From the NCBI GenBank assembly GCA_033722595.1, contig JAWVYT010000001.1:1-24999 (forward strand): a DNA stretch of 24,999 bases, in the 5' to 3' direction. This DNA comes from Longimicrobiales bacterium. Lineage in GTDB: Bacteria > Gemmatimonadota > Gemmatimonadetes > Longimicrobiales > RSA9. Shown one piece after another: positions 1-20,063 of the stretch. A program made the translations under genes and the position numbers. The notes beneath the pieces are model-generated. The model made no database searches, was not told the origin of the DNA, and saw only the letters and a program-made list of their open reading frames with translations. Position 1 is the first letter of the stretch. Each line of letters begins with the position of its first letter.

Positions 1-452
1 CCGAAGCAGTAGTCGGCCCCGCCGAACGACTCGATCAGCGATGTGGCGGCGCCGGGTTCGTTTGGGTCGGGGAACCGGACGTTGGCCGGGTCGGGCCGAA
101 GCTCCGGGTCCATGGGGTCCACCAGCGACGAGCGGACGAAACGGCGGAAGCTCAGCGGATGGTCCTCCGCGATGTACTCGTCGTTCTCGTCCAGGTACTC
201 ATCCATGCTGATGGTGACCAGCGGCGCGCACGAGACCCGCTCCTCGTTGCACAGGCGAGCCCAGTACCGGTAGTCCAGCGGGCCCACGGGGACGATCATC
301 AGGACCTGTCGGCCGGCTTCGCCGGCGGCCCGGATGGCGTCCACGGCCTCCCGGGCGACCCGGCGGTTCAGGGCGTCCAGATCATTGACCCGGTTGAACC
401 GGAAGGGCCGGAGCCGGCTGAAGTCTTCGAACTCGGTCTCGTAGATATCCAT
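1..452 (-). CDS. Glucosamine-6-phosphate deaminase/isomerase (NagB)-like protein, C-terminus truncated by window edge
   Basis: Not in the ORF track; translated manually from ATG at 452: MDIYETEFEDFSRLRPFRFNRVNDLDALNRRVAREAVDAIRAAGEAGRQVLMIVPVGPLDYRYWARLCNEERVSCAPLVTISMDEYLDENDEYIAEDHPLSFRRFVRSSLVDPMDPELRPDPANVRFPDPNEPGAATSLIESFGGADYCFG. MDEY, HPLSF and IESFGGAD match NagB-family MDEY, HPxSY and IxxxGGID segments. Open to position 1. Confidence 0.75.
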   Translation of the reverse strand, partial: MDIYETEFEDFSRLRPFRFNRVNDLDALNRRVAREAVDAIRAAGEAGRQVLMIVPVGPLDYRYWARLCNEERVSCAPLVTISMDEYLDENDEYIAEDHPLSFRRFVRSSLVDPMDPELRPDPANVRFPDPNEPGAATSLIESFGGADYCF

Positions 453-489
453 CACTGTCTCGGGTTCGGGTAGCTCGTGCAGGGGGCGG

Positions 490-1284
490 TCACAGCTTCA
501 GGAGTCTGGCTGCAGTCCCCCCGTAGATCCGGTCGACGACCGCGGTCGGGAGATCGAGGCGCCGGATGATATCGTCGTGGTACTCCTTGGCCGGGATCAG
601 CTCGTCCAGAGCCAGGATATCGGTGCCGAAGACGACCTTGTCCCAGGCGTTCTCCCAGAAGAAGTGGTACCGATAGAAGTCCAGGTCCTTGTTGGCCCGC
701 CAGCCGCCCCAGGCGGCTCCCGTGAGGTCCACGTAGTAGTTCGGGTGCATCCGGGCCATCATGGACGCCTCCTCGTGCCAGGGCGCGCCCAGGTGGGCGC
801 CCACCACGTTCAGGCCGGGGAACGACCGGAGCACGACGTCCAGGCGGATCGGGCGCATCCAGTCGGCGTTCACCAGCCGTCCCTCGGGCCGGGCCGTACG
901 CATCACGATCCCCGTGTGGGCCAGGAGCGGCAGCCCGGACGCCTCCATCCGGTCGTAAAGCGGGAAGTGGTCGGGGTCGTCGTAGGGACTGACGGGGTTG
1001 GTCACCTTGAAGCCCCGGAACCCCATCTCCACGAACCGGTCCACGTCTTCCGGCACGTCGCTGCCGAGGCGGACGAGGGCGAAGGCGAAGATGCGGTCCG
1101 GATGGGCCGTCGCCGCCTCCAGCACTCGCAGGTTGTCGGCGTGGCCGAACTCCGGACCCGCCGAGAAGAGGCAGATCCGGTCGATCCCGGCCCGGTCCAT
1201 GCGCCGGACAAGCCGCGCGGGGAAGTCCGGCTCGTCGGCCGGGTAGTGTGCGTGGAAATCGATGACCATTTTCGCGCGTTCCAT
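490..1284 (-). CDS. Amidohydrolase family protein (Amidohydro_2-type TIM barrel metalloenzyme)
   Basis: Motifs IDFHAH (HxH), GFRGFK, AHTG, GAHLG, VDLTG, VVFGTD. Start trimmed to ATG 1284, 5 nt after the SSS stop; ATG 1269 is an alternative. Confidence 0.85.
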   Translation of the reverse strand: MERAKMVIDFHAHYPADEPDFPARLVRRMDRAGIDRICLFSAGPEFGHADNLRVLEAATAHPDRIFAFALVRLGSDVPEDVDRFVEMGFRGFKVTNPVSPYDDPDHFPLYDRMEASGLPLLAHTGIVMRTARPEGRLVNADWMRPIRLDVVLRSFPGLNVVGAHLGAPWHEEASMMARMHPNYYVDLTGAAWGGWRANKDLDFYRYHFFWENAWDKVVFGTDILALDELIPAKEYHDDIIRRLDLPTAVVDRIYGGTAARLLKL

Positions 1285-1289
1285 CCTCG

Positions 1290-3116
1290 CTACTCCGCAT
1301 CCACCGGTGGCCGCCGAAGCTCTTCGAGCGCCGTCGGCGGGGCGAACTCCAGTCGCGGCCACAGCCGGGCCAGGACCAGGGCGGCGACGACGGCCAGCGT
1401 GGTCAGCGCCAGTGCCGGCCCCATACGGCCGTACAGCCAGTAGCCCACGGAGAACAGCGTGGAGTATACGGCGATGGCCCCGAGGCCGGCACACACCAGG
1501 CCTATGGGGACGTCCCAGCCGCCGCCCTCCGGCAGGGCGTCTCCCGCTTCCACGGCCCGGGCCCGGACCACGGTCCAGCCCGGTCCGCCCGGCCGGACCT
1601 TCTGGTAGAAGCGTCGGAGCACCCGGTCATCGGAGGGCCGCGTCAGCAGGGTCACCACGAGCCAGGTGGTGGTGGTGAGCACCACCGTGGTCAGCAGGAT
1701 CTGCCAGCTCCGGAGCGGGGCGAACCCCAGCGGCTCGTGGACGAAGTTGAAGTAGACCGCCGTGGTGAGGGCCGTGGCCATGGCAGCGATCTCGCTGAAA
1801 GCGTTGACCCGCCACCAGAACCAGCGAAGCAGGAAGACGAGCCCCGTCCCCGCCCCGATCTGCAGCAGGAGCCGGAAGACCTGGAGCGCGCTCTGCAGCT
1901 GGAGCGCAACGAACCCGGCGAGGAGGACGAAGAGCACCGTCGCGATCCGCCCCACCAGGACCCGCTCCCTTTCATCGGCCTCGGGCCGGTAGAAGCGTCC
2001 GTAGAGGTCGTTGACCACGTACGACGACATGAGGTTGAGCTGCGTGGAGATGGTCGACATGTACGCCGCTGCCAGCGAGGCCACGACGATGCCGAGTAGG
2101 CCCGGCGGCATGAACGTCAGCATGGCAGGGTAGCCGAGGTCGTGACCCGGCGGGGCGGTGGGGAACGCCGCCGCCAGCGACTCGAGGTCCGGGAAGACGA
2201 TGAGCGACGCGAGGGCCACGATGATCCACGGCCAGGGCCGGACGGCGTAATGGACCACCTGGAAGAACAGCGTGGCGCCCATGGCGTGCCGCTCGTCCTT
2301 CGCCGACAGGATCCGCTGGACGATGTAGGCGGCGCCGCCGGGTTCCGACCCGCCGTACCACATGCTCCACCAGAACACGGTGAGGGGGAGCACGAAGATG
2401 GACATGGCCAGGTCCATGTCGTCGAACGAGGGGACCAGGGCCGTCTTGGCCACGACGTTGGCGTGCCCGAGCAGCCCGTCGAGACCACCCACCTGGGGAT
2501 GAGTGAGGGCGACGTACGCCGCGGCCACCGACCCGAAGATGGCGATGCCGAACTGGAACAGGTCGGCCCAGACCACGCCCCGGAGCCCGCCGGACATGCT
2601 GTACAGGGCCGTAATGCCGCCGCCCACCAGGACCACCGTCAACGGCTGCACCCCGATCATGATCCCGGCGATCTTGATGGCCGCCAACGTGATGGCCGCC
2701 TGCGCCAGGATCCCGAACACCAGGACCATGTAGCCCGCTCGGAACGCCCGGAGGAAGGCCGCGGGCTTCCCGCTGTAGCGGAGCTCGTAGAAGGAAATGT
2801 CGGTGAGGAGCCCGCTCCGGCGCCACAGCTTGGCGTACACGAACACCGTCAGCATCCCCGTAAGGAGGAGGGCCCACCACTCCCAGTTCCCGGCCACGCC
2901 GTGCCGCCGAACGATGTCCGTGACCAGATTGGGCGTGTCCGTGGAGAAGGTGGTCGCCACCATGGACGTGCCCAGCAGCCACCACGGCATGTTGCGGCCC
3001 GAGAGGAAAAACTGGGCCGAGTCCTTCCCGGCCTTCCGGCTCGCCAGGATCCCGATGACCAGCGAAAGGGCCATCACGCTCAGGATGATGGCCAGGTCCA
3101 GCGTGGACAGGATCAT
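1290..3116 (-). CDS. Na+:solute symporter (SSS family)
   Basis: 608 aa with many hydrophobic helices; FFLSGRNMPWWLLGTSMVATTFS, GGLRGVVWADLFQF, IVQRILSAKDE and AAYMSTISTQLN are SSS-type segments. Confidence 0.92.
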   Translation of the reverse strand: MILSTLDLAIILSVMALSLVIGILASRKAGKDSAQFFLSGRNMPWWLLGTSMVATTFSTDTPNLVTDIVRRHGVAGNWEWWALLLTGMLTVFVYAKLWRRSGLLTDISFYELRYSGKPAAFLRAFRAGYMVLVFGILAQAAITLAAIKIAGIMIGVQPLTVVLVGGGITALYSMSGGLRGVVWADLFQFGIAIFGSVAAAYVALTHPQVGGLDGLLGHANVVAKTALVPSFDDMDLAMSIFVLPLTVFWWSMWYGGSEPGGAAYIVQRILSAKDERHAMGATLFFQVVHYAVRPWPWIIVALASLIVFPDLESLAAAFPTAPPGHDLGYPAMLTFMPPGLLGIVVASLAAAYMSTISTQLNLMSSYVVNDLYGRFYRPEADERERVLVGRIATVLFVLLAGFVALQLQSALQVFRLLLQIGAGTGLVFLLRWFWWRVNAFSEIAAMATALTTAVYFNFVHEPLGFAPLRSWQILLTTVVLTTTTWLVVTLLTRPSDDRVLRRFYQKVRPGGPGWTVVRARAVEAGDALPEGGGWDVPIGLVCAGLGAIAVYSTLFSVGYWLYGRMGPALALTTLAVVAALVLARLWPRLEFAPPTALEELRRPPVDAE

Positions 3117-3124
3117 CTATGCGG

Positions 3125-3790
3125 CTACGCGCCGGCGTGCGTCTTGTCCCACGCCTCCTGGAAGATCCGTTCTCCCATCGTGGAGTACGGGCTCCTGAAG
3201 CTGTCCTGGTAGACGGCGAAGCCGGCGGTGACGCAATCGGCGCCCGCCCGGGCGGCCTCCCCGATCTGCCATCCGTTCCGGATCGCCGACGCGATGATCT
3301 CGGCGTCGTAGCCGCCGGCGTCGAGCATCTCCCGGACGCCCCGAATCAGCGAGATGCCGGGGTCGCCGTGGGCCTCTCGCCAGCCCAGGAAGGGGCTGAC
3401 GTAGGCGGCGCCCGCCCGAGCAGCGTGCCACGCCTGGGCCACCGAGAAGATGAGCGTGGCGTTGACCCGGATGCCGTCGCCGCTCAGCGTCCGGATGGCC
3501 GCGCACCCGGGCTCGCTCATCCCGATCTTGATAACGAACTGCGGGGAGATGGCCGCCAGCTCCCGGGCCTGCTCCACGATCTGGTCGTGGTCGGTCAGGT
3601 GGGGATTCACCTCCACGCTGATCGGCTTGTCCGTATCCGACAGGATGTCGGCGATCTCACGGATCACCCCCTTGAAACTCTTGCCCGAAGTGAAGACGTG
3701 CTTGGGGTTCGTCGTGATCCCGTTGAGGTCCCACACCTTCAGGGCGTGCCGGATCTCTTCCGTGTTCGCGCTGTCCAGAAACAGTTTCAT
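3125..3790 (-). CDS. sqvA: Small transaldolase (TalC/FSA family), closest in motif pattern to 6-deoxy-6-sulfofructose transaldolase
   Basis: Start ATG 3790 (MKLFLDSA), 221 aa. Catalytic D6, E60 and Schiff-base K88. TTNPKH, ISVEVNPHL, SPFLGW, IRNGWQI and GFAVYQDSF match the SqvA/SftT pattern as recalled, not ordinary TalC (TTNPSL, SPFVGR). Symbol assigned by similarity only. Confidence 0.8.
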   Translation of the reverse strand: MKLFLDSANTEEIRHALKVWDLNGITTNPKHVFTSGKSFKGVIREIADILSDTDKPISVEVNPHLTDHDQIVEQARELAAISPQFVIKIGMSEPGCAAIRTLSGDGIRVNATLIFSVAQAWHAARAGAAYVSPFLGWREAHGDPGISLIRGVREMLDAGGYDAEIIASAIRNGWQIGEAARAGADCVTAGFAVYQDSFRSPYSTMGERIFQEAWDKTHAGA

Positions 3791-3803: not shown

Positions 3804-5255
3804 CTAGTCGATTCCGCCGAAGGACAGGTGCTTGGTCTCCAGGAAGGCGTCCAGCCCCTCGGCTCCCAGCTCCCGACCCATTCCACTCTGCTTCATCCCG
3901 CCGAACGGGCTCTGGCTCGTCGACGGGACCGCGTCGTTGATCCCCACGGTCCCCGCCTCGAGCGCCTCCCCGACCCGCCATGCCCGGGCCAGGTCCGTGG
4001 TGAAGACGTACGCGGCCAGGCCATACTCCGTGGCGTTGGCCCGCGCCACTACCTCGTCTTCGTCGTCGAAGACCAGGAGGGGCGCGATGGGGGCGAACGT
4101 CTCTTCCACCGTGCACGCATGATCATCGGCCACGCCCTCGAGGACGGTCGGCTCCAGGAAGTAGCCGTCCAGCTCGGCCCGCCCGCCACCGGTGAGGACC
4201 GTGGCGCCCGCAGACACGGCGGCCTCGATGCTGGCCTCAGCGGCCTCCAACGCCCTCTCGTCCACCATGGGTCCGATATCGACCCCCTCGGTGAGCCCGT
4301 TCCCGACCTCGAGGTCCCGGACGCCGGCAACGAAGGCCTCCCGGAACGCGTCGTAGATGCCGCGCTGCACATAGATCCGGTTCGCGGCGATGCACGACTG
4401 ACCCGTGTTCCGGAACTTCGTGATCAGCGTTCCCTCGACGGCCATCTCGAGATCCGCGTCATCGAACACCACGACGGGGGCGTTGCCGCCCAGCTCGAGG
4501 GACAGCTTTGTGATGTCGTCCGCGGCCAGTCGCATGAGCTGGCGACCCACGGATGTGGAGCCCGTGAAGCTCACCTTGCGGCACTCCCGGTGCCCGAACA
4601 TGGCCTCGGCCACCGCCCGTGCGTTCCCCAGGACCAGCTGGAAGACGCCGCGCGGCAGCCCGGCCTCGTGGATGGCTTCGGCCAGGAGTACGGACGACAG
4701 AGGCGTCGCGCTGGCCGGCTTCAGCACCACCGGACACCCGGCGGCCAGGGCGGGGGCCACCTTCCGGACGGCGAGCACCAGCGGGAAGTTCCAAGGCGCG
4801 ATCGCGCCCACCACGCCGACCGGCTGACGGATGATCACGTGCCGCTTCCCGTCGACCTGGTGGGGGATGACCCGGCCGTAGCCCCGTCGGGCCTCCTCGG
4901 CGAACCACTCCAGGTGATCCACCGTCATGCCCACCTCGCCCCGGCTCTGCGCCAGCGGCTTGCCGTTCTCCCGCGTCAGCGTTCGGGCGATCTCGTCGGT
5001 ACGGTCCTCGATCCCCCGGGCGATCCGCCGGAGGTAGCCGCCCCTCTCCTTGCCCGTGAGGCGCCGCCAGCCGGGCCACGCGGCCGCCGCATCATCCAGG
5101 GCGGCGCGCACGCCGCCGGCGTCCACGGTCGCCACCCGACCGATGGTCTCGCCGGTGGCCGGGTCCTGGACGGCCAGGGGGTCGCCGCCCCGGTACCACT
5201 CGCCGTTCAGGTACAGGGGACGGACGCTCTGCGTGGGTGCTGATGTAGCTGACAT
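3804..5255 (-). CDS. NAD-dependent aldehyde dehydrogenase, GabD/succinate-semialdehyde dehydrogenase-like; candidate sulfolactaldehyde dehydrogenase
   Basis: IAPWNFP, VVLKPAS, SFTGSTSVG, LELGGNAP (catalytic Glu), RNTGQSCIA (catalytic Cys), EETFAP, PFGGMKQSG. Family is certain; substrate is inferred from context. Confidence 0.9.
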   Translation of the reverse strand: MSATSAPTQSVRPLYLNGEWYRGGDPLAVQDPATGETIGRVATVDAGGVRAALDDAAAAWPGWRRLTGKERGGYLRRIARGIEDRTDEIARTLTRENGKPLAQSRGEVGMTVDHLEWFAEEARRGYGRVIPHQVDGKRHVIIRQPVGVVGAIAPWNFPLVLAVRKVAPALAAGCPVVLKPASATPLSSVLLAEAIHEAGLPRGVFQLVLGNARAVAEAMFGHRECRKVSFTGSTSVGRQLMRLAADDITKLSLELGGNAPVVVFDDADLEMAVEGTLITKFRNTGQSCIAANRIYVQRGIYDAFREAFVAGVRDLEVGNGLTEGVDIGPMVDERALEAAEASIEAAVSAGATVLTGGGRAELDGYFLEPTVLEGVADDHACTVEETFAPIAPLLVFDDEDEVVARANATEYGLAAYVFTTDLARAWRVGEALEAGTVGINDAVPSTSQSPFGGMKQSGMGRELGAEGLDAFLETKHLSFGGID

Positions 5256-5306: not shown

Positions 5307-6575
5307 TCAGGGGGCCCGGGCCGGGACGTCCAGGTCCTCGGCATGGGTGCCCGCCGAGCCGGAGCGGACCTGCGCCAGGATCGTCTCCTCGTCCTCCGGG
5401 AAGCTCCACGAGAACCCCATCCAGGCTGCCCCGAGCGCGCCCGCGATGCCGCCCAAGCGCCCGTCCTCGAGGTAGGTGGTCTTCAGGATCTGGGGCAGCA
5501 CGTGCTCCCGGAACGTCTCCTCCAGCGCCTGCCGGACCGTGGAGCAGCAGTTCGGGACCTCGCCGGATAGCACGATCTTCTCCGGGGCGAAGAGGTTGGC
5601 GAGGTTCGCCAGGATGGTGCCCAGACGCTCACCCAGCTCCTCGAGGCAGGCATCCAGAAGGTCGTCACCGGCCTGGGCCTCCTCCACCAGGTCGGAGAGC
5701 CGCAGATCTTCACCCTTGTCCAGCAGCCGCTGTCGACTGTCCGTCTTCTGCCACGAACGCAACATGGCCCGGGTCGACTCCACGAACCCCGTCGCCGATA
5801 CCAGGTCGGTGACCAGCTTGGGCCCCCCATCGGTCGGCAGCACCGTGTAGCCCACCTCGCCCGCCAGCGCGTTCGCGCCCCGGTAGACCCTGCCATCGAT
5901 GACGATCCCGAGACCCACGCCCGACCGGACCGCCAGACACAGGAAGTCGCTGTTGCCACGCCCCGCGCCCCGCAGCAGCTCCGCGTAGGCCACCGCACGG
6001 ATGTTGTCCTCCACGAAGACGGGGACGTCCGGACCGAGGGCGGCCTCCATACGCTCCCGGACCGGGACCTGGTCGAAGTCCGGCAGGAGCCGGTAGTGGA
6101 GGATGCGGCCGGAACGCACGTCCACCTGGCCCGGCGCCGCGACACCCACGGCAAAGACTGGCCCATCCGCTTGTTCGACCATTCTCCGGGCCAGCTCCGT
6201 TATCGTCTCGAGCGCTTCCTCCCGGGAAGGGGAGGCCGGCAGCGAGACCTCCTCCTCCTTCAACACACCCCCGCCGAAATCACACAGCACCGCACGGGCC
6301 CGGAGCGCCTCGAAGTCGAGACCCACGAACGTGCCGTAGTCCGGGTTGAGTTGCAGCGGCACCGGCGCACGACCGGGGCGCGACTGCACCGGCTCGCCCT
6401 CCAACAGTATCCCGACGTCGAGGAACTCGTTGACGTATCGGCCGACCATCGTCGCGTTGATGTTCAGGCGCTGCGCAAGCTCGAAGCGGGAGCAGCGCTC
6501 ACTCCTGAACACCTGGTTCAGGATGCCGCGCTTCTTGGCCACCAGCTTCGTTTCTCGAGGTCGAGGATACGCCAT
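5307..6575 (-). CDS. ROK family transcriptional regulator
   Basis: N-terminal HTH (SRFELAQRLNINATMVGRYVNEF), then ROK segments VGLDF, VGVAAPGQVD, GVGLGIVIDGRVYRG and AGEVG. Confidence 0.9.
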   Translation of the reverse strand: MAYPRPRETKLVAKKRGILNQVFRSERCSRFELAQRLNINATMVGRYVNEFLDVGILLEGEPVQSRPGRAPVPLQLNPDYGTFVGLDFEALRARAVLCDFGGGVLKEEEVSLPASPSREEALETITELARRMVEQADGPVFAVGVAAPGQVDVRSGRILHYRLLPDFDQVPVRERMEAALGPDVPVFVEDNIRAVAYAELLRGAGRGNSDFLCLAVRSGVGLGIVIDGRVYRGANALAGEVGYTVLPTDGGPKLVTDLVSATGFVESTRAMLRSWQKTDSRQRLLDKGEDLRLSDLVEEAQAGDDLLDACLEELGERLGTILANLANLFAPEKIVLSGEVPNCCSTVRQALEETFREHVLPQILKTTYLEDGRLGGIAGALGAAWMGFSWSFPEDEETILAQVRSGSAGTHAEDLDVPARAP

Positions 6576-6702: not shown

Positions 6703-7326
6703 TCACTGCCCCCGGTTCCGCCATTCGACCTGGAGCTGTTTCACCTCGGCGACGCCGGGCAGCTCGTGCTTCATCGGAGCCCGGACGTGCTCCACGACCT
6801 CTGCGCCGGGGCGGAGGGTGGCCGGGGCGGGCTGGACGTGGCTGGCGATGCTGGCGGCCTCGACCGTGCCCGGGTCGTTCTCGATAAGGCGGTTGATGCG
6901 GTCGAGGTGCCGGTCGATGCCGGGCACGTGGGGCACCGCGTAGATGGCTGCGATGCGTGCGCCGTCGGCGTTCTCCGAGGTCGCGATCTTGAGGTCGAGG
7001 TACATCTCCCGGAAGTCCTGGCCGAAATAGCGATGGGCGCTGAGGTTGGCCACCACGGCGGTGCCCCAGCCGGTGCCGTGGGTGCTGATGGAGCCGAGTG
7101 ACTCCCATTCGCCGCCGAAATCGAGGTTGGTCCGGAGGAAGACCTCGTGCTCGCCGGCGTCGAGATCGGCTCCATAAATGAAGAGGTCGAATCTGAGGTC
7201 CTCGGGCGCGAAGGTCGGTTCGGGACGGGTGTCCTGGGCGGTGCCCGGGGTCCCGCAGCCGAGGGCCGTTGCGGTGACCAGCAGGAGCGTTGCGAACGTC
7301 CGTGCGAGAGGTTCCGGCGGATGCAT
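6703..7326 (-). CDS. Hypothetical lipoprotein; stand-alone copy of the C-terminal domain of the 10929-12581 protein
   Basis: ATG 7326 preceded by GAGGAAATC; hydrophobic stretch plus lipobox ALGC; 207 aa; visible similarity to the neighbouring protein (RFDLFIYG vs RFDLWIYG). Confidence 0.75.
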   Translation of the reverse strand: MHPPEPLARTFATLLLVTATALGCGTPGTAQDTRPEPTFAPEDLRFDLFIYGADLDAGEHEVFLRTNLDFGGEWESLGSISTHGTGWGTAVVANLSAHRYFGQDFREMYLDLKIATSENADGARIAAIYAVPHVPGIDRHLDRINRLIENDPGTVEAASIASHVQPAPATLRPGAEVVEHVRAPMKHELPGVAEVKQLQVEWRNRGQ

Positions 7327-7366
7327 GATTTCCTCGTTCCTTGGTATCGGTTTCAGGCTGGGGTTC

Positions 7367-8890
7367 TCACGAGGCTTCCAGCACGACGGTGACGGTGGCG
7401 ACGGCCACGTCGGCGGGCAGAGTGATGGAGCCCTCCTCGGGGTCGTAATCGGACCACGGGCGTCCGTCGATCTCCACCGCCGTGATCCGGATCTCCGGGT
7501 CCTCCAGCAGGGAGGGGTGGAGCGTCGCTCCATTCGGCTCCACGATGCGGTAGTGGAGCGTCGCGGGCTCCTCCTCGACCCAGAGAGTGAGGTAGAGATA
7601 GTTGAGGAGCGCGTACTCCATGGAGTGATACGACGTCTTCGTGCGGACGGCTTTATCACCCCTGTGGAGGGACCCATCGAGGTATACGCTGAGATACACG
7701 GCGCCGTGCTCGGGGTCCATGAAGGCCCGGTTCCAGAACTCTGCGCCCGAGCGGAACACCTCGAGGTGCCGACGGTCCCCGGTCAGCCGATACTGGTACA
7801 GCTGCACCATGTTCCCGTACGCCTGGACCCACCAGGGCGTGGTGTTCCTGTGCACCTCGCCGGTAGCCAGCCGCAGCTGATGGGCCCACGCGCCGGTCTC
7901 CGGCTGGTACGCGTGCTCCAGCATGGAGGTCGCGAGCCGAAGGCCCTGGTCGCGGTAGGCGTCGTCACCGGTGAGGAGGTGGAGCCGCATGAGCAGCCAC
8001 CCGGTCTCCAGGTCGTGGCCGACGTTCGTCCGACGATCCTCGGGGCCATCGTACCGCCAGCTCCGATCGAACCGGCCCAGGACCCAGCCGGTCTCCGGGT
8101 CCCGTGTGCGCTCCATCACCACGCCCAGGATCCGCTCCATCCGCTGGAGGAGCACGGGGTCCCGCAGGGCGGGGTAGAGGTACGCCAGGTAGCCGGAGAC
8201 GTGGGCGATCTGGGGAGAGAAGTCCTTTCGCCATTCCCGGACCGACAGGTCCCGGTTCAGGCTGCGCACGTAGCCGCCGAGCTCCTCGTCCCAGGCGTGC
8301 CGCTCGAGGATCTCCATGGACCGATCGAGGTACCGGCGCACCACCGGATCCCGCGTCACGACCCAGTACATGGCCAGTCCGGTCACGGCGTACGCCTGGT
8401 TGAACAGGTCCTTGGTGTCGGCGACGATGCTCCCGTCCCGGTCCAGTTCGTCGTACCAGCCCCCGTACGCCTCGTCCCACCCGTGGTCCACCAGGAAGCC
8501 GAAGACGTCACCGGCGACATCCAGATGAGCGGCATCGCCGGTCAGGAGGTAGGCCGCGGAATAGCTGAAGAGGTGACGGGCCACCATGCCGGGGTACTTG
8601 TGGAGGTCGCGACTCGGCCGCCACTCCCGGTCCATCTCGGCGAAGAACGCGCCCGCCTCGGTGTCCTGGCCGTTGCGGGTCCAGGCGGGGAGCACGTCCT
8701 CGAGCCCCTGTGCCCGCCAGTAGTCGCCGTCCAGGAGGGCATCGGCCGTGACACCCGCGGTCGGCTCGTCGGTCACGGACTCGGCCGACGCCGAAGCGCC
8801 TGCGCCGGTCGGGCCACAGGCCGCGCAGGAGAATGCGAGGGCGGGGAGCAGCAGCCGGGCCCCCGATCGGACCGTGTTCGGGGCCCTCAT
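7367..8890 (-). CDS. AGE-family (N-acylglucosamine/cellobiose 2-epimerase, YihS-like fold) epimerase/isomerase with probable lipoprotein signal
   Basis: ARHLFSYS, GWDEAYGGWY, KDLFNQAY, VGHDLETGWLL, WWVQA, SYH. ATG 8890 overlaps the upstream stop (ATGA). Signal LLLPALAFSCAAC; 507 aa. Confidence 0.85.
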   Translation of the reverse strand: MRAPNTVRSGARLLLPALAFSCAACGPTGAGASASAESVTDEPTAGVTADALLDGDYWRAQGLEDVLPAWTRNGQDTEAGAFFAEMDREWRPSRDLHKYPGMVARHLFSYSAAYLLTGDAAHLDVAGDVFGFLVDHGWDEAYGGWYDELDRDGSIVADTKDLFNQAYAVTGLAMYWVVTRDPVVRRYLDRSMEILERHAWDEELGGYVRSLNRDLSVREWRKDFSPQIAHVSGYLAYLYPALRDPVLLQRMERILGVVMERTRDPETGWVLGRFDRSWRYDGPEDRRTNVGHDLETGWLLMRLHLLTGDDAYRDQGLRLATSMLEHAYQPETGAWAHQLRLATGEVHRNTTPWWVQAYGNMVQLYQYRLTGDRRHLEVFRSGAEFWNRAFMDPEHGAVYLSVYLDGSLHRGDKAVRTKTSYHSMEYALLNYLYLTLWVEEEPATLHYRIVEPNGATLHPSLLEDPEIRITAVEIDGRPWSDYDPEEGSITLPADVAVATVTVVLEAS

Positions 8891-10932
8891 GGCCGCCTCG
8901 GCGGTGGCAGCACGCCGGGGACGGCGATGATCGGGCTGTCGGCCAGTCGGGACATGACATCGATCCGGCGCTCCACGAGGCCGTTCCGGTTCACGTCCAG
9001 GACCGCCGCGATCCGGTAGCGTCCCGGCGGGATGCTCTCGAAGCGGAAGGCGCCGTCGGGTCCCGCGGCGGTCTCGAGCACGGGCTGCGCCAGGTACGGC
9101 TCGATCTTCCGATACGGCAGGTCGGCCATGTAGAGGCCGACCCGGATCGTGGCGTCGCCGGGCTCGCCCTCGATGTCCAGCGCTCCCCGGAGCGTGCGAC
9201 CCTCGAGGACCAGGCTGGCGGCGCGCAGGTCCACGGCGGTCACGTCGGTGTCCAGGAGGTCCGGCGGAAGATCGAAATGAATGGCCGCGGTCTCCTCGCG
9301 GGCCCGAACCGTCACCGGGTGGCCGTAGATCAGGGTCCGGAGGTCCTCGTAAGCGCTTTTGTCGCTCGTCGGGCCGGGGTTCCGAGGGTCGGCCTCCGCC
9401 ACGTAGATGTAGAACGTGCCCGGCGCCAGCCGGTCGATCCTCCAGCGGCCGTCCTCGTCGGCTACCGTCCGCTGTCCCCAGAATCCGCCGGTGTAGTTGG
9501 GCCACGCCGGGATGCGCCGCACACCCACGGCGACGACGTTCTCGCCGTGGTAGTCCACGGTGCCCGCGATGCTGCCGAGGAGGGTGTCGGGGTCGAGGGG
9601 TGGGGTGGCCGGGTGATCGGGGTCCACCAGCCGTAGCGCCTCATCGATGATCCGGACGCCGTAATGGGGCTGGAACCGGACGCCCTTGGCCTGGTAGGTG
9701 ACGGCCTCGAGGGCCAGGTGCTCGGGCACGATGTAGCCGATGTAGTCATCGGCGTTCGTGATGAGCATGTTCTTCTCGAGGGGCGAGCCGGCCTCGTAGC
9801 GGTACCCCAGGTCCACGCCCAGCTCGCCGGGGATGGTGGCGAGGACCGCGTCGTTCAGGACCAGGGCCTGGAGGAGGGTCTCGTGGCTGTCCCCGTCCCG
9901 GCGCGGGATCTCCGCCGTGGTGGAGCGGAACGCGAGGTCGACCTGCCGTCGTGTCTCCGTCCGGTCGAGGAGGGCCACGACCTCTTCGCCCAGCTTCTCC
10001 ATGAAGACGAGCTTCGGCGGGGCCTCCTCACCCCGGATCCGGGTGTCGGCTCGCCGGGGCTGCTGGTCACCCGCCGCGCCGCCCGAAAACATGATGAACG
10101 GGTCGGTGGCGATGTCGTTCTTCCGCTGGTAGCGCTCGTACAGCAGGTCCAGCCGCTTCCTGGCCTCCACGTACTCCCGGACGAACCCGGGCCAGTCCGG
10201 CCCCGTCTGCCCGACATCGCTCCACTCGGTGAAGATGGTGGGATGGGACCCGTAGTTGAACATGGCGCCACGGAAGTTGCCGTCGGCGTCGTCGACGCGC
10301 AGTACGTAGAGGAGCGGGTTGGCCAGGCCCGACAGCTCGGCTCGGTTCAGGTTCAGATCCTCCTGCGCCCGGGTCTTCCCGACACCGATCCGGGCGTCGA
10401 ACCGGGTCGCCATGGCCTCCTCGGCGGCCCGGGTCGCCCGGTCCGCCAGGAAGCTCCGGACCTCCTGGCCGTGCGTCCGGGGGTACGAGTGGTTGTGGGT
10501 TGCTGCCACGATCATGTGACGGACGTCGAGCCCCGTGGCTTCGGCTACCCGGCGCTTGATCCACTCCCCGTCGCCCCGACGGATCCCGATGACGTCGAAC
10601 TCCAGGAGCAGGGTTTCGACACCGTCGACCTCGATGAGGAGAGCATGGACCAGCGCACTGTCGTAGTACCCCGTCGTCGGCTCCGGACGCCCGTACGAGA
10701 GGCGGACCGGGAACTCCGGCGTGATATCCGCCTCGCCGAACCCCACGCGGACGGCGCCCGACGCCCGGACCTCGTACACGGGCGCGGCGGTCCGGGCGTC
10801 CCGGCCAAGCGGAGGGATTCCGGGACCCGGCTCCGCCCCGGAGGCTCCCGGCAGCGCCAGGAACGCGGTCAGGCACACCACGACGGACGACCGGCACTCC
10901 CCGGCGCCGGCGAGCCCTCGCCTCCGGGTCAC
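8887..10932 (-). CDS. Exported neutral/alkaline ceramidase-like amidase domain plus C-terminal beta-sandwich (carboxypeptidase-regulatory-like) domains
   Basis: GFGEADITP, AATHNHSYP, NYGSHPT, GAAGDQQP, NADDYIGYIVP; C-terminal WRIDRLAPGTFYIYV and FRFESIPPGRYRIAAVLDVNRNG. GTG 10932 overlaps the upstream TGA; signal peptide-like N-terminus; 681 aa. Confidence 0.78.
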   Translation of the reverse strand: MTRRRGLAGAGECRSSVVVCLTAFLALPGASGAEPGPGIPPLGRDARTAAPVYEVRASGAVRVGFGEADITPEFPVRLSYGRPEPTTGYYDSALVHALLIEVDGVETLLLEFDVIGIRRGDGEWIKRRVAEATGLDVRHMIVAATHNHSYPRTHGQEVRSFLADRATRAAEEAMATRFDARIGVGKTRAQEDLNLNRAELSGLANPLLYVLRVDDADGNFRGAMFNYGSHPTIFTEWSDVGQTGPDWPGFVREYVEARKRLDLLYERYQRKNDIATDPFIMFSGGAAGDQQPRRADTRIRGEEAPPKLVFMEKLGEEVVALLDRTETRRQVDLAFRSTTAEIPRRDGDSHETLLQALVLNDAVLATIPGELGVDLGYRYEAGSPLEKNMLITNADDYIGYIVPEHLALEAVTYQAKGVRFQPHYGVRIIDEALRLVDPDHPATPPLDPDTLLGSIAGTVDYHGENVVAVGVRRIPAWPNYTGGFWGQRTVADEDGRWRIDRLAPGTFYIYVAEADPRNPGPTSDKSAYEDLRTLIYGHPVTVRAREETAAIHFDLPPDLLDTDVTAVDLRAASLVLEGRTLRGALDIEGEPGDATIRVGLYMADLPYRKIEPYLAQPVLETAAGPDGAFRFESIPPGRYRIAAVLDVNRNGLVERRIDVMSRLADSPIIAVPGVLPPPRRP

Positions 10933-12581
10933 CGGTCCGGGCCTCCCGTGAGTCCCAGCGCCTCGCGCCAGGCCGCCCGGGCCGCGTCGGGGCCCACCGG
11001 GCGCCGGGCCTGGACCGTGATCGTGACCGGTGCCGCGGCGTCGATGGCGAGGGGGCGGGGCCGGACCCAGGCGGCGAGGCTGTTGATGTCGGCCCATCGG
11101 GGGTGAACCTCGATGAACCGGGTGACCTCCGCCTCGGTCAGGAAGTTCCGGGTCTCCCGATACGGCATCGCGTAGACGGCCGAGACGGTGGAGCCGTCCC
11201 TGCCGTTCGGCGTCTCGAATCGGACCTGGAGCCGGCCGTCCACCAGGAATCGGTCCCGCTCCAGGGCGTGGAAGAGGACAGCGTGCGACCGGTCGGCGTA
11301 CGAGTACATGTGCGCCGTGTCCGCGTCCTCGACGTAACCCTCCCGGTCCTGCTGCGGGTTGATGGAGCCCAGGAACTCCCAATCCCCGTCCGCCGTTCGG
11401 AGGGAGACCCGGTGCTCCGAGTGATCGAAGTCGTGGCCGTAGATCCAGAGGTCGAACCGCTCTCGCGGCTCGATCGCGCCGCCGGCCTCGAGGAGTCGGA
11501 GGTAGCCGTACGTGAAACGGTCCCGGGAGGTCCCGATGACGGAGCCCGCGGGACCGATGGCGCCCTGGCTGTTGGGGACGAACGGGTCGAACGAGACGTC
11601 GTAGAGCCGGTCCTCGGAGACACCGGGGTCCCGGGAGATCAGCATGTGATTGGTGGCCGAGTAGTTCGGCCAGTACCAGCCGAGGCCGTCGGGCTCGCCG
11701 GCCATCATGGCGTCGACGTTGGTGTCGATCTCCCACCGGCTCGGCGTGTGGCCCAGCCGGATCGTGTGGATCTGCCCCAGCTGATAGGCGCCGACGCCGT
11801 AACGGTCCGCCACGGTCCGGATGTTCCGGACCACGTCGGTTATGTAGTCGTTTATCCCCTCGATCCCGAAGCCCCGGGCGAGCCAGCCTCGGTAGATGTC
11901 GGAGTAGATGAAGTCCGGCGTGGCCCCGTGCTCCGTCGCCCGGCGCATGAACTCGTCGATCAGCGAGTATTCACCGGCCATCGCCTCCGACGCGTTGTGC
12001 GGGTGGTGGAGGAAGACCCCGACCTCCACGGTGGGCATCTCCTCCTTTAGGGCCCGGGACATCATGGCGAATGCCTCCGGGGCGTGACGCCGGAACTGGT
12101 CGAAGTCGAGGAAGTAGTCCCGGTGTCCGTCCACGAGATCCCGGCCGAACCCGCCGAGGGGCGCCTCATCGAACAGGCTGATCCGCCCGCCGTCCGGGTA
12201 GTACTCGTTGAAGATCCGGGCGATGGCGCGGAACCGGGCCAGTGCGGGGGCCCGCTTCTCCGGATCCTCGACGAACTCGCGGGCTGTTGCCTCCCGGCCC
12301 GGTCCGATCTCCAGCCACACCTCCTCGATGCCCAGCTCGGTGGTCCATTCGAAGAAGTTGCGGAGCCCTAACGTGTCCCGGTTGCCGGACTGATAGGGAA
12401 CGATGTCGTGCCGCTTCGCGAAGGTGAGCATGGTCCGGAAGAGCTCCGGGTCACCCTCCATGAGGTTCTGCCCGCCGGTCCACATGTGAACCTCCAGCTC
12501 CTGCCCGTCGGCCAAGGACGCGCCGAGACCCGCGAAGGAAAGGAGGAGCAGGGCTTCCACGCACCGTCGTCTGAATGCCAT
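10929..12581 (-). CDS. Exported hypothetical protein (~550 aa); possible TIM-barrel glycoside-hydrolase-like domain plus C-terminal domain
   Basis: Signal peptide MAFRRRCVEALLLLSFAGLGASLA; protein-like composition; in line with the operon. Start 12581 (alternative 12611). No family recognised with confidence. Confidence 0.75.
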   Translation of the reverse strand: MAFRRRCVEALLLLSFAGLGASLADGQELEVHMWTGGQNLMEGDPELFRTMLTFAKRHDIVPYQSGNRDTLGLRNFFEWTTELGIEEVWLEIGPGREATAREFVEDPEKRAPALARFRAIARIFNEYYPDGGRISLFDEAPLGGFGRDLVDGHRDYFLDFDQFRRHAPEAFAMMSRALKEEMPTVEVGVFLHHPHNASEAMAGEYSLIDEFMRRATEHGATPDFIYSDIYRGWLARGFGIEGINDYITDVVRNIRTVADRYGVGAYQLGQIHTIRLGHTPSRWEIDTNVDAMMAGEPDGLGWYWPNYSATNHMLISRDPGVSEDRLYDVSFDPFVPNSQGAIGPAGSVIGTSRDRFTYGYLRLLEAGGAIEPRERFDLWIYGHDFDHSEHRVSLRTADGDWEFLGSINPQQDREGYVEDADTAHMYSYADRSHAVLFHALERDRFLVDGRLQVRFETPNGRDGSTVSAVYAMPYRETRNFLTEAEVTRFIEVHPRWADINSLAAWVRPRPLAIDAAAPVTITVQARRPVGPDAARAAWREALGLTGGPDR

Positions 12582-12672
12582 TGAGATCTCTCGGGAGAAA
12601 AACGTTGCCATCTGTGTGGTCTGTGCGTCGGTGGGCCCGCCGCATTTGCGGGTGTCGGGCATCGGATACGCA

Positions 12673-12739: not shown

Positions 12740-14320
12740 CTACTGCACGCTGATGTCTGAGTCCGCGCTGTACTCGCCGCCCCCGCCAAAGCTGTACACC
12801 TGGAGCCCGAAGGACTCCAGCTCCTCGGCCGGGATCGGCAGCTGCTCGAACGTACCGGGCTGGAGCGTGCCGAAGCCCCGCCGGTCGAACCACGTGAGCC
12901 ATACGTCCAGGCCCATCCCCTCGATGAGCCGCTCGTGGTGGAGCGCGTCCATGAGAGTGCCACACGCGGTGCCATCCTGCGTCCTCGGGATGCACGACGA
13001 CAGGCCGCCAGGGACGCCCGCAGCCGTGACGGGCGGGAGCTGCCCGTTGGCTTCCCGGGTGATATTGATGAGGGTGGCAGCGCCGTCAGGGTCGCTGGTC
13101 CGGAGCAGGGCCTCGGCCTTCAGCAGGTTCATCTCGTCCACCGTGATGACCGGGTTCAGCGCCTCCGCCCAGGGAAACGTGGTCCCGGCGAACCGCTCCC
13201 ACTTGTACCGGCCGTGGAGGTACTCATCCGTGGAGCCCACGTTGATGGCCTCGTCGGTCCACCGGAAATAGAGCCCCGGCGTCTGGGGCCCGCCGGCCCC
13301 GGCGATGCGTCGGTCCGCCGTCTGGACGTCGAACGGCGCCATCTGGTCCTGACTGGCCGCCACCCAAGCGGCGAAGACACCGGTCGTATCCGCCGGCCCC
13401 AGGAGCCGGAAGTCGGCGCTCCAGCGCTGGGCCAGGATCTGCATCAGGTACTGGAAGTACGCCGAGTTGAGCCCGCCCGTGGTCATCTGGACCATGAAAT
13501 CGCTCTGGATCCCGGCGTCCACGTGCTGGATCACCTGGGTCCAGTCCACGGCCTGCCGCTCCGTCGGGTTCCGGGGTGTGTACACCAGGAGGCGGGCCAT
13601 GTAGCTGTGAGCCAGCTCCACCAGCTCGGCGTTGGTCAGAGGGTTGCCGCCGGCCCAGGAGGCCGGGGTTTCGAACGCCGGTGCCGCCGTGGCGATGTCG
13701 ATGGCGTTCTGGAGCGAGGTCATGGCGAACGCCTGGACCTCCGGGTACGGCCGGTAGGCCAGCTCGGCCTCGTTCTGGAAATCGGTGTCCACGTCGGCCA
13801 GCGTGGCCTGATCGAAGATCATGGCCAGGTACCCGTAGAGGATCCCGTGGTTGAGCCACGCGAAAGCCTCGGCCCGGGCGTTCGCGGCCGCTTCGGTGGC
13901 GGCGCCGGCATCCGGTGGGAACGAGATGTCGTTGTCGTAGAAGGCCCGCAGCCCGTCCATGGCGTTGGCCGCGCCGGCGTACGCCTCGTACCAGGGCGCC
14001 TCGACCAGCGGGCCCGTGTTGCCCACCTGGGAATTGGGGAAGAGCCCACGGGGCTCCGTGGCGAAGTCGATGAGGTTCCGGTGGTTGGCCGTCCCCTCGT
14101 CGGAGTAGCCGGGGATCCGGGCGGCCGAGCCCACCTGGTCCTGACCCACGGCCCACACCGAGTTCCAGGACGCCGCGATGAGGTTCTGCACCGCCACGGC
14201 ATCGGACAGCGCGGCCGTGCGGTCCGGGTCCGTGATGTTCTCGACTGCAAGGTCCTCGCACCCCGCGGTCAACCCGAGGAGCACGAACGCACTGAATAGA
14301 AGTGTCTTGTTCATTGGCAT
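12740..14320 (-). CDS. susD: SusD/RagB-like outer-membrane nutrient-binding lipoprotein
   Basis: Lipobox LTAGC; C-terminal EMNLLKAEALLR, LINITR, LHHERLIE, FDRRG, QLPIPAEE; directly downstream of the SusC-like gene. Start 14320 or 14314. Confidence 0.85.
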   Translation of the reverse strand: MPMNKTLLFSAFVLLGLTAGCEDLAVENITDPDRTAALSDAVAVQNLIAASWNSVWAVGQDQVGSAARIPGYSDEGTANHRNLIDFATEPRGLFPNSQVGNTGPLVEAPWYEAYAGAANAMDGLRAFYDNDISFPPDAGAATEAAANARAEAFAWLNHGILYGYLAMIFDQATLADVDTDFQNEAELAYRPYPEVQAFAMTSLQNAIDIATAAPAFETPASWAGGNPLTNAELVELAHSYMARLLVYTPRNPTERQAVDWTQVIQHVDAGIQSDFMVQMTTGGLNSAYFQYLMQILAQRWSADFRLLGPADTTGVFAAWVAASQDQMAPFDVQTADRRIAGAGGPQTPGLYFRWTDEAINVGSTDEYLHGRYKWERFAGTTFPWAEALNPVITVDEMNLLKAEALLRTSDPDGAATLINITREANGQLPPVTAAGVPGGLSSCIPRTQDGTACGTLMDALHHERLIEGMGLDVWLTWFDRRGFGTLQPGTFEQLPIPAEELESFGLQVYSFGGGGEYSADSDISVQ

Positions 14321-14339
14321 ACCGTGTGTTCTCGGGTAG

Positions 14340-17300: not shown

Positions 17301-17582
17301 GACGTCCTCCTCTACCGTGGAATACCCGATGGACTGGGCCACCAGCGTTACGGTCTGGTCCCGAACCAGAGAAGCCGGAACCGCAATGCGGTACCGGCCC
17401 TGTTGATTCGTGAAGGTCCCGAGCCCCTGGTCCGCCAGCCCGTCGACGTAGACCTGTACGCCCGGCATCGGGTCCCCGGCCTCGTTGGCCACCGTGCCCA
17501 GGAGCGTCGCTTCCTGCGCCAGCGCCGGGCCGGATCCCAGGAGAAGGAGTGCGAAGATGAGTCCAATTGGCCTGGTCTTCAT
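14340..17582 (-). CDS. susC: SusC/RagA-like TonB-dependent transporter
   Basis: Signal peptide, N-terminal beta-sandwich, DEIVVTG TonB box, PLYVVDGV and IEVIKGAAAASLYGSRAAAGVIQIRT plug motifs, terminal Phe (VEITF). ATG 17582 with AGAGG RBS; 1080 aa. Confidence 0.93.
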   Translation of the reverse strand: MKTRPIGLIFALLLLGSGPALAQEATLLGTVANEAGDPMPGVQVYVDGLADQGLGTFTNQQGRYRIAVPASLVRDQTVTLVAQSIGYSTVEEDVTLESGTHVVDFVLRQTALSLDEIVVTGVVDPVQGKKLPFTVGRVSAENVATVPATGAALQSLQGKVAGVNITRPSGQPGEEVSIQLRTPTTVFTGNEPLYVVDGVILGAGTIDLEALDIESIEVIKGAAAASLYGSRAAAGVIQIRTARGSGVALDQTRFTYRSEAGASALPRRIPSLEAHWRVVNEGEPYTDSHGRLVRTGDMLDRDGDLGCRRFYPNCEGFANNPGQIADQSYIDPLYDHIGTFYKPGRFLMQSFGVSRNSEKTNFLTSFNLYDEAGSIPGHEGFERYNFRFNLDHRIMDNLSLSFSGYHNRSFRETIDEGESGATGQGAFFQLMRYRNEFDIGKIDPETGLYVQFPDSSYWQENPLFLAQTRDNWEKRSRTLGNIALNYSPAQWLRISGQFSYDRLDRNNQWHLPAGTPINPFSGNPETFPSPGLLDLRERTMDTQNGSLRATLTENFGLLNSRLTFAGSFESRDLVDVQTRGEDFAVLGTSDVNLARDRTIRSTNETIRANGYFADLALDYSDKYIGSFLVRQDGSSLFGPEERWHTYFRTALAYRVSEEPWWPFADVITEFKPRYSLGTAGNRPDFAFQYETWDVDVSADGQTVTFTRGTLGNRALKPEFAREQEVGLDVALYDRYLLQLTYATQRTEDMILRRPQRAVTGYQYQWDNIGTIEGTALEMSLEASLIQSDNLRWTATFVGDQTTSTITEWPIAPLRDGLRIYDEGNSLYDIYGSQFLTSLDQLADIGLAGFEDEFDVNDEGYVVWVGAGNTWRDGLEDSGTGRVNWETRTTIDGVRYDWGWPVAMFDPATGEQLTFKIGSMKPDFSYGFLSNVTWKGLSVHAHLRGQIGGDVYNYTRQRMYRLSQHGDLDQRGKSEETKKSRRYYQRGLYNNNIFTDPFVEDATFLKLQAIQLAYTFNRGQLGWLPGSMAPQNLTLGITGRNLFTLTGYSGYDPDVGTVLNRYDAFGYPNLRQLTATVEITF

Positions 17583-17803
17583 GCTACCTCTTGGATTGGG
17601 TTTGACGTGAGTCGGGCCCGTCCACTGCCAAGATGCGGGCCGAATCCGGGGTTCTGTGCTGCCCTGCGGCCCTCGCCGCCCGGCGGGACACCGGGCAGCA
17701 ATCGGCATGGATCGCGCGGCCTCTGTAGGCCTGTAGGATTCGCTGCCAATGGAACGATTCAGGGGTCGGGCCGGAGCCGTTGGGGTCGGGTTCGTTGGAC
17801 GGC

Positions 17804-19463: not shown

Positions 19464-19530
19464 GGGATCGCTGTGGCAGGTTCGTGGAGCCCCGTCCCCG
19501 GCGAAAGCCGGCGTCGCGGCCGTTGACCCC

Positions 19531-19559
19531 AGGGTAGAGGTCCGGGAGGGCCCCGTCAA
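19531..19559 (-). promoter_or_regulatory. Candidate sigma70 promoter for the sulfatase
   Basis: Minus strand TTGACG (19559-19554), 17 nt, TACCCT (19536-19531; TAnnnT). Confidence 0.5.
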
Positions 19560-19667: not shown

Positions 19668-19729
19668 AGACGGGCCGCGCCGCCGGCTCGGCATGGGCGC
19701 AACCGAGACACGAGGGGCAGAGAGACCGG

Positions 19730-20047: not shown

Positions 20048-20063
20048 GAAGGGCGAACCAGAT

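Follow-up and report, generated by a model that had tools for sequence, protein, structure and literature searches.

Which enzyme supplies 6-deoxy-6-sulfofructose (SF) to a locus that encodes a sulfofructose-transaldolase-like protein and none of the recognisable sulfoquinovose (SQ) isomerases? The question is raised by the first 24,999 bases of contig C1 (JAWVYT010000001.1) in the metagenome-assembled genome of a Longimicrobiales bacterium, an assembly of 642 contigs that is 74% complete. This whole stretch, with a G+C content of ~69%, is called the window below. Because it spans C1:1-24999, its base 1 is the contig end, and there a gene for a protein resembling the glucosamine-6-phosphate (GlcN6P) deaminase NagB is cut off. 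A preliminary description of the sequence proposed that this NagB-like protein takes the place of an SQ isomerase and possibly opens a route from a 6-sulfo amino sugar. Judged by its gene content, the window is a sulfonate locus whose parts match the sulfo-TAL (transaldolase, TAL) pathway and sulfolactate desulfonation, and it probably encodes a sulfoglycolysis variant with an undescribed, widespread entry enzyme family. We put the probability that the NagB-like protein produces SF, either by deamination or by isomerisation, at about 0.7.

The window was compared with relatives from many phyla in a set of 88 loci (80 genome loci and 8 metagenome or window loci; L numbers below). All open reading frames of these loci, called with a codon-position GC filter where the locus was GC-rich, were clustered, and the common clusters were named by Pfam and NCBIfam and set on the tree of the NagB-like family. 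Because the genomes are interrelated and many contigs are cut, the neighbourhood counts describe this sample and are not statistics.

The NagB-like protein

3 to 452, minus strand: NagB-like protein, N-terminal 150 codons, a member of clade I of its family; the contig end cuts the gene (family ~286 aa)

The open frame runs from 3 to 455 on the minus strand, with an ATG at 452, and its third-codon-position G+C (GC3) of 0.89 follows the coding GC pattern of this genome. The 150-residue fragment reads ...LMIVPVGPLDY...ISMDEYL...HPLSFRRF...GGADYCF before the contig ends, while full-length relatives have 282-308 aa, the closest in a database search being P0003 (79% identical to the fragment). The preliminary description had placed a NagB-fold gene downstream of a co-oriented transaldolase gene; its coordinates, gene order and strand were correct, and profile and model bear out the fold. 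A profile built from 30 members of the family matches B. subtilis NagB (2bkv) with E 2e-24, as against E 0.07 for 6-phosphogluconolactonase (6PGL). The AlphaFold model of P0003 (pLDDT 93) finds NagB structures with a Foldseek E of 1e-21 and TM scores of 0.74-0.87, and 6PGL structures less well (E 1e-11 or weaker). The window gene thus encodes a NagB-fold protein, with a likeness to NagB far beyond chance. By sequence the distance from NagB is nevertheless large: identity to NagB is ~23%, the TIGR00502 score of 76.2 bits lies far under the 236.9 cut-off, neither the fragment nor full-length P0003 has a Pfam match at E<=0.01 (PF01182 included), and family members carry no precomputed Pfam domain, although some are labelled GlcN6P deaminase by JGI.

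With NagB (EC 3.5.99.6; TIGR00502, PF01182) the family has in common the fold, the catalytic Asp, the His of G-H-x-A-F-N and the acid that follows it, positions that we take to be Asp72, His143 and Glu148 of the E. coli enzyme. The Asp, in an MDEY motif, is present in the window fragment. The His segment lies past the window edge, as the preliminary description had said, and the missing C-terminal half is on no other contig of the assembly, where only a paralogue on C120 and the canonical NagB on C160 were found. In the 30 relatives, GH(F/L)AFNDP and the following Asp/Glu are (nearly) invariant. Identity as a 6PGL was rejected, NagB being closer by structure and profile and the motifs (MDEY, GH.AFN) being of NagB type. 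The same motifs count against an accessory role, in which the protein would, for example, assist ring opening or mutarotation or act as a 6-sulfogluconolactonase, and the real isomerase would lie past the contig end or in unassembled DNA. The fold in common with 6PGL, the incompleteness of the genome and the position of the gene as last on its contig favour such a role, as does a division of labour suggested by the paralogous clade IIa, always accompanied by a clade I gene; compact operons with no other candidate isomerase, such as L051 (see below), argue against it, and we regard it as improbable.

In an alignment with the canonical NagB of the genome, PVGP(L)D stands in place of the phosphate loop TG(G/S)TP, and NagB Lys208 corresponds to a His inside a conserved R-x-W-H motif of clade I; in addition, the family is longer by ~17 residues at the N-terminus and carries a PPEPGEP insertion. 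By these scores and alignments, the protein is not an ordinary NagB and its anion site is rebuilt. The VPVGP loop in place of a NagB-type loop, pointed out earlier, is real (PVGP for (L/A)TG(G/S)TP), yet as evidence of sulfonate binding it was dropped, because it is family-wide and NagA-linked members share it.

Could the protein be a divergent but ordinary deaminase, converting GlcN6P (or GalN6P/ManN6P) to ketose phosphate and ammonia? The Amidohydro_2 protein encoded next to it would then be a deacetylase, the ROK protein a kinase or regulator, and the phosphofructokinase (PFK) and aldolase of related loci glycolysis enzymes. The JGI label fits this explanation. The replaced Lys208 and TGGTP loop do not, nor does the genome, whose three NagB-superfamily proteins include, besides the window gene, a canonical NagB on C160/C317 (244.5 bits, over the 236.9 cut-off) and a paralogue on C120, 37% identical and beside a GlmA-like glycosidase. 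Evidence from the gene neighbourhoods, given below, also bears on this point.

A probable sulfonate operon

The NagB-like gene is the last of a minus-strand operon that runs toward the contig end in the order ROK, aldehyde dehydrogenase (ALDH), transaldolase, sodium:solute symporter (SSF), Amidohydro_2 and NagB-like, with gaps of 8-51 nt overall and of 8-37 nt from the transaldolase to the NagB-like gene:

493 to 1269, minus strand: Amidohydro_2 (PF04909) metal hydrolase, conserved partner of the NagB-like gene
1290 to 3116, minus strand: SSF, probable sulfosugar importer
3125 to 3790, minus strand: sulfofructose-transaldolase-like enzyme, best PDB match BmSF-TAL 8bc3
3804 to 5255, minus strand: GabD/SSADH-type ALDH, candidate sulfolactaldehyde dehydrogenase
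5307 to 6575, minus strand: ROK protein with N-terminal winged helix, probable regulator

The transaldolase is the clearest link to sulfosugars. It matches BmSF-TAL (8bc3) of Bacillus megaterium with E 1.5e-57 and 52% identity, the next PDB match being an ordinary transaldolase (E 1.5e-45). Both carry GW(R/K)E and RNG.QI, motifs that read GR..D and RHP.H in ordinary TAL, so that the Trp in GWRE takes the place of the phosphate-binding Arg of ordinary TAL/FSA, and the FSA/TalC model score of 180 is under the cut-off of 246. A sulfonate-orienting W/A/R set has been described in BmSF-TAL (PMC11659671). Such a partner argues against an ordinary deaminase. The transaldolases beside NagB-like genes are of two types: those of the window and L110 are SF-TAL-like with Trp (GW[RK]E), and those of L033, L054, L096 and L106 are of canonical FSA/TalC type with Arg (GRLD), the L106 copy passing the FSA cut-off. 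The sulfolactaldehyde dehydrogenase RlGabD (8c54) is among the top matches of the ALDH, scoring no better than E. coli GabD, and ALDH orthologues with 60-66% identity occur in L051, L054, L106 and L117. Orthologues of the SSF (66-73% identical) occupy the same position in L016 and L057. An SSF paralogue with 72% DNA identity is found in the same genome on C33 (L048; 4023-9545), a contig that also carries a GH109-type enzyme exported by twin-arginine translocation (TAT), an SGL/NHL protein and a rhodanese.

At its other end, the window carries a plus-strand block:

19670 to 21233, plus strand: split UxaA-type pair (SAF, then GD_AH), SuyAB-like
21310 to 22923, plus strand: Ldh_2 dehydrogenase, domain covering residues 184-509 of the open frame
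22694 to 23884, plus strand: D-2-hydroxyacid dehydrogenase (2-Hacid_dh)
23806 to 24966, plus strand: YeiH-family putative sulfate/sulfite exporter

SAF plus GD_AH is the architecture of SuyAB, and we take the set as a whole to correspond to SuyAB, ComC and the exporter of sulfolactate degraders. The best NCBIfam match of the Ldh_2 protein is L-sulfolactate dehydrogenase, at 242 bits against a cut-off of 500; its true start is probably later than that of the open frame, given the residues that the domain covers. This sulfolactate module, together with the exporters (EamA, TauE, YeiH) that accompany operons of the family, further counts against an ordinary deaminase.

The sulfo-TAL pathway of Bacillus aryabhattai and B. 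megaterium comprises SftT/SqvA, SftI/SqvD, SftD, SftG and an exporter. The window resembles it in having an SF-TAL orthologue-like enzyme, a GabD-type ALDH, an importer and an exporter. It differs in what is absent (SftI, DUF4867 and a GH31 or GH188 sulfoquinovosidase) and in what is present, namely the Amidohydro_2 and NagB-like proteins, SusC/D capture with exported ceramidase-like and N-acylglucosamine 2-epimerase (AGE)-fold proteins, and a SuyAB/ComC-like module for full desulfonation in the same locus.

Known isomerases and sulfoquinovosidases

The absence of a recognisable SqvD/SftI, reported earlier for the window, extends to the assembly: PF02952 has no match in the whole 74%-complete genome. 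A YihS-type isomerase was not found there either, the PF07221 gene outside the window (on C609) being cellobiose-2-epimerase-like. As for sulfoquinovosidases, no GH31 or GH188 gene is present in the window, the sole GH31 gene of the genome is alpha-xylosidase-like, and none of its GFO proteins exceeds 37% identity to an SqgA-like query; no known sulfoquinovosidase was found in this 74%-complete genome. The NagB-like protein itself has neither the FucI-like fold of SftI/SqvD nor the AGE (alpha/alpha)6 fold of YihS. In sulfo-TAL- and sulfo-EMP2-like clusters the NagB-like gene holds the slot of SftI/SqvD (PF02952, NF048012) or YihS (PF07221), and SF is the expected product, even though its fold is unrelated to theirs and has no FucI-type metal site.

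These findings invite the explanation that the family is a third, new kind of SQ isomerase, using the Asp/His machinery of NagB to turn imported SQ into SF via an enediol instead of an enamine. The Amidohydro_2 protein would then be an accessory, for example one that opens or mutarotates the ring as SqvB/YihR do, or it would be an esterase. The preliminary description offered a new-fold SQ/SF isomerase as its alternative, and it is a strong rival, on account of the missing SftI- and YihS-type genes and of compact operons lacking any other isomerase; co-occurrence with SftI-like genes, set out below, tells against it. To our knowledge, no NagB-family enzyme isomerises a 2-hydroxy sugar, which also weakens it. 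Among the searchable papers, 2026 reviews included, we found none linking a NagB-type protein to sulfoquinovose catabolism.

A widespread family and its neighbourhoods

At least 564 relatives of the NagB-like protein were found in one scan of species-representative genomes, spanning Verrucomicrobiota, Planctomycetota, Acidobacteriota, Chloroflexota, Spirochaetota and Armatimonadota plus one haloarchaeon. The family tree has two main branches and three parts. Clade I (45 loci) includes the window protein and is hosted by Opitutaceae, Planctomycetota, Kiritimatiellia, Acidobacteriota, Chloroflexota, Spirochaetaceae, Armatimonadota, Bacteroidales and a Haloarcula plasmid. Clade IIa consists of 16 genes, each accompanied in its locus by a clade I gene, and clade IIb of 38 loci.

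Clade I keeps company with known or presumed aldolases and transaldolases. A class II aldolase (14 loci), a Cgl0159-like gene (10) or a TAL gene (3) lies within 5 kb in 27/45 loci, and within 300 bp in 22/45. The Cgl0159-like TIM-barrel protein, whose only match is the uncharacterised structure 3fok, is presumed to be an aldolase because its gene is nearly always paired with PFK in clade I loci. Transketolase genes were not found, or enriched as a cluster, among the 88 loci. In the two closest relatives (78-79% identical), Amidohydro_2, NagB-like and class II aldolase genes follow each other with overlapping stop and start codons, so a class II aldolase may also lie past the contig end of the window; a search of the assembly for it gave just a 35%-identical housekeeping aldolase. 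The Amidohydro_2 gene adjoins the NagB-like gene in 9/45 clade I loci and lies within 5 kb in 13/45, and the HxH, Lys, His, His and Asp ligands of its product are strictly conserved.

Clade IIb is coupled to N-deacetylases. PIG-L or NagA genes are found within 5 kb in 18/38 loci and within 300 bp in 15/38, an aldolase gene in just 4/38, and clostridial members adjoin genuine NagA genes. The catalytic residues are the same in clade I and in this deacetylase-coupled sister clade. Like NagA and NagB, relatives of the window gene pair a NagB-like gene with an upstream hydrolase, and in clade I the two genes are likewise co-oriented neighbours, only a few bases apart; the hydrolase of clade I, as opposed to that of the NagA and PIG-L pairs, belongs to PF04909. 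Unlike NagB, the family has sulfoglycolysis-type aldolases or a transaldolase as neighbours, and its genes never adjoin a phosphotransferase system (PTS) or a clear sugar kinase, import being by SSF, MFS or ABC transporters. These import routes are a further difficulty for an ordinary deaminase, for which the NagA genes beside clostridial clade IIb members, the recurrence of ROK genes, a PFK in L051 that passes the PPi-PFK (pyrophosphate-dependent) subfamily cut-off and the L106 transaldolase passing the FSA cut-off can be cited. Taken with the points above, that explanation is about as improbable as an accessory role.

Three neighbourhoods deserve particular attention. L051 encodes a ROK protein, the NagB-like protein, a class II aldolase (FBA), PFK, an ALDH 66% identical to that of the window and an EamA exporter; operons of this type look like sulfo-EMP2 with a NagB-like gene in the isomerase slot. 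The enzymes of sulfo-EMP2 are SqvD (PF02952), SqiK (PF00365) and SqiA (PF01116) (PMC9594981). In L106 (Opitutales), genes for ROK, TauE, TAL, an ALDH 60% identical to that of the window, SftI-like, NagB-like and PIG-L proteins stand on one strand. In L096, genes for MFS, NagB-like and PIG-L proteins are set opposite those for ALDH and TAL, after which come a SAF+GD_AH pair and a LarA-family racemase. This racemase scores over the 'malate racemase LarAH5' cut-off and might racemise sulfolactate as a single enzyme. The L096 locus (Verrucomicrobia; 1-2641 and 9288-11984) adds to its NagB-like/PIG-L, TAL, ALDH and SuyAB-like genes an oxidative glycoside cleavage set, made up of a GFO dehydrogenase, a 3-keto-disaccharide hydrolase and two xylose-isomerase-like TIM proteins.

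FucI-like (SftI-like) neighbours occur beside NagB-like genes in 11/88 loci, and all 11 form one cluster. In the seven that were scanned, the SftI model is the best NCBIfam match (the sole one in six), at 86-283 bits against a cut-off of 700. An isofunctional enzyme should exclude SftI; the enrichment of SftI-like genes therefore speaks for a linked, non-redundant role, and the roles of the two proteins may not be identical. For an isomerase, 11/88 is enrichment where exclusion would be expected, and L106 holds both genes with PIG-L in one operon. On the other side, 41/45 clade I loci have no SftI-like gene within 5 kb, yet 27/45 have an aldolase or TAL, and the compact L051 and L034 operons offer no possible entry enzyme besides the NagB-like protein. 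A search of the 88 loci for GH31 genes gave none, which again counts against an SQ isomerase.

The clade IIa paralogue, which has an HGH motif, is found at L035:11015-11857, L053:7498-8340, L065:11889-12749, L084:151-1008, L074:9000-9860 and others; the clade I and IIa proteins may form a heteromer or catalyse two consecutive steps. L074 is a plasmid of Haloarcula montana GH36, where a clade I/IIa pair adjoins genes for a GFO protein and an ABC transporter; this haloarchaeon is in culture and might be used for experiments. A DUF4838 protein (L035:12490-14388, also in the clade I loci L052, L077 and L086), whose N-terminus gives weak GH20b/GH67N-like matches, is a candidate glycosidase for the substrate.

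Deamination or isomerisation

Our preferred reading is that the NagB-like protein deaminates 6-sulfo-glucosamine after deacylation, though we hold it tentatively and would not bet on it at even odds. The protein would be a cytoplasmic entry enzyme that hands SF to the transaldolase encoded upstream. In the proposed sequence, the substrate taken up by the SSF would be an N-acyl-2-amino-2,6-dideoxy-6-sulfo-glucose or else a small glycoside, cut down beforehand by exported enzymes of the locus, and the Amidohydro_2 protein would take off the N-acyl group. The His of GH(F/L)AFNDP would then open the ring and the Asp of MDEY abstract H-2, after which hydrolysis of the enamine/imine would yield SF and ammonia. 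Transaldolase would cleave SF into sulfolactaldehyde and a transferred C3 unit, the GabD-type dehydrogenase would form sulfolactate, the Ldh_2/2-hydroxyacid dehydrogenase pair would invert it, and the SuyAB-like lyase would release pyruvate and sulfite. We infer all of these substrates, the role of the Amidohydro_2 protein and the existence of the amino sulfosugar from a basis that is observed, namely the fold, the homologies, the catalytic residues kept in relatives, the gene order and the recurrent neighbourhoods.

Deamination is favoured over isomerisation for several reasons. The sister clade is coupled to N-deacetylases and has the same catalytic residues, the sulfo-TAL-like operon of L106 holds an SftI-like gene together with a NagB-like/PIG-L pair, and L096 combines such a pair with TAL, ALDH, SAF+GD_AH and racemase genes. 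Clade I is paired with a metal hydrolase of invariant ligands, and ceramidase-like genes (12/88 loci; within 5 kb in 3/45 clade I loci) and DegT aminotransferase genes (5/45 clade I loci) recur. An SQ isomerase would leave the Amidohydro_2, ceramidase-like and DegT genes unexplained, and would have to use the same catalytic residues as the deacetylase-coupled sister clade.

A number of observations weigh against deamination. A 2-amino-6-sulfo sugar is not known, and the literature searched contained nothing on 'sulfoquinovosamine'. About two-thirds of clade I loci, for example L051 and L034, are without a candidate deacylase within 5 kb, many contigs being cut, and related loci are not independent samples. 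The gene is truncated in the window, so that its His segment is read from relatives, and the altered loop is not diagnostic of sulfonate binding. We know of no N-deacetylase in PF04909; the nearest folds to the Amidohydro_2 model are decarboxylases, (sugar) lactonases and uncharacterised proteins, with no characterised near relative among its structural matches. Finally, the GFO neighbour in L035 (7093-8253) is most like sulfoquinovosidases, its best PDB matches being the NAD-dependent SqgA structures 8qc2/8qc3 (E 1e-31). The sulfonate-binding Arg of ArSqgA is aligned in it, which favours an SQ isomerase, and Phe replaces the Tyr that hydrogen-bonds the 2-OH of SQ. This protein also carries an 8-residue loop insertion. 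SQ is, moreover, abundant and its amino analogue not on record, a further point for isomerisation. On balance we give an isomerase a somewhat lower probability than deamination, the highest among the alternatives to it.

With respect to the amino-sugar route first suggested for this locus, a non-standard NagB in the place of an SQ isomerase has stood, recurring in many unrelated genomes beside transaldolase or SqiA/SqiK-type genes; the route itself is tentatively favoured, and its amino sugar is unrecorded.

Exported proteins and the capture of substrate

Between the operon and the plus-strand block lie a SusC/D-like pair, a sulfatase, exported AGE-fold and ceramidase-like proteins and proteins of no family:

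6703 to 7350, minus strand: lipoprotein of ~210 aa, with a domain in common with the C-terminus of the 10929-12650 protein
7367 to 8860, minus strand: exported AGE-fold protein (PF07221) with lipoprotein signal
8887 to 10860, minus strand: exported neutral-ceramidase-like protein with C-terminal beta-sandwich domains; relatives carry PF04734
10929 to 12650, minus strand: exported protein, no family match
12740 to 14392, minus strand: SusD-like lipoprotein, so read from its position and lipoprotein signal; no Pfam match
14340 to 17708, minus strand: SusC-like TonB-dependent receptor
17988 to 19559, minus strand: exported sulfatase with SGSH_C domain

The ceramidase-like and AGE-fold proteins had been proposed as enzymes of an N-acyl amino sugar. 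Their homologies hold, but because of their export or lipoprotein signals both act outside the cytoplasm, and AGE-fold genes occur in only 3/88 loci. The AGE-fold protein is closer to GlcNAc and cellobiose 2-epimerases than to YihS, and has a lipoprotein signal peptide and a ~70-aa C-terminal extension. The AGE (GlcNAc 2-epimerase) family is otherwise cytoplasmic, so its export is unusual. The 6703-7350 protein and the ~570-aa 10929-12650 protein, neither with a family match, share DLxIYG.D.D..EH.V.LRT...EW..LGSI.

A further explanation takes another 6-anionic hexosamine, for example GlcN-6-O-sulfate from sulfated glycans, as the substrate of a deaminase or isomerase. O-sulfated analogues would then pass through the downstream steps, with elimination of sulfate by the SuyAB-like lyase. 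The groups 6-O-sulfate and 6-phosphate are isosteric, YeiH is named as a sulfate exporter, sulfatase genes lie within 10 kb in 15/88 loci, and the family is common in sulfated-glycan specialists (Planctomycetota, Verrucomicrobiota, Kiritimatiellia, Lentisphaerae). The sulfatases are not orthologous, however, and most are exported; with mostly 21-37% identity to one another, a conserved sulfatase was rejected as part of the system. The transaldolase, 52% identical to an enzyme with demonstrated activity on the C-sulfonate SF, also counts against O-sulfates, and we know of no pathway via fructose-6-sulfate. We rate this the least probable of the explanations considered.

Significance

The turnover of sulfoquinovose weighs heavily in the global sulfur cycle. 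Surveys of SQ degraders look for the isomerases and sulfoquinovosidases already known, and would overlook a widespread entry enzyme of NagB-like type. If the family isomerises SQ, it would be a third, unrelated solution for the conversion of SQ to SF. If it deaminates, an undescribed natural N-acyl-2-amino-2,6-dideoxy-6-sulfoglucose ('sulfoquinovosamine') is catabolised by bacteria of many phyla, an idea to which we give somewhat less than an even chance. In that catabolism a deacylase (Amidohydro_2, PIG-L or ceramidase-like) and the NagB-like deaminase would yield SF and ammonia, and SF would feed the known sulfoglycolytic aldolase, transaldolase or transketolase routes. Deamination would thus point to a natural sulfonated amino sugar not yet described, and would add to sulfoglycolysis a new branch that releases nitrogen.

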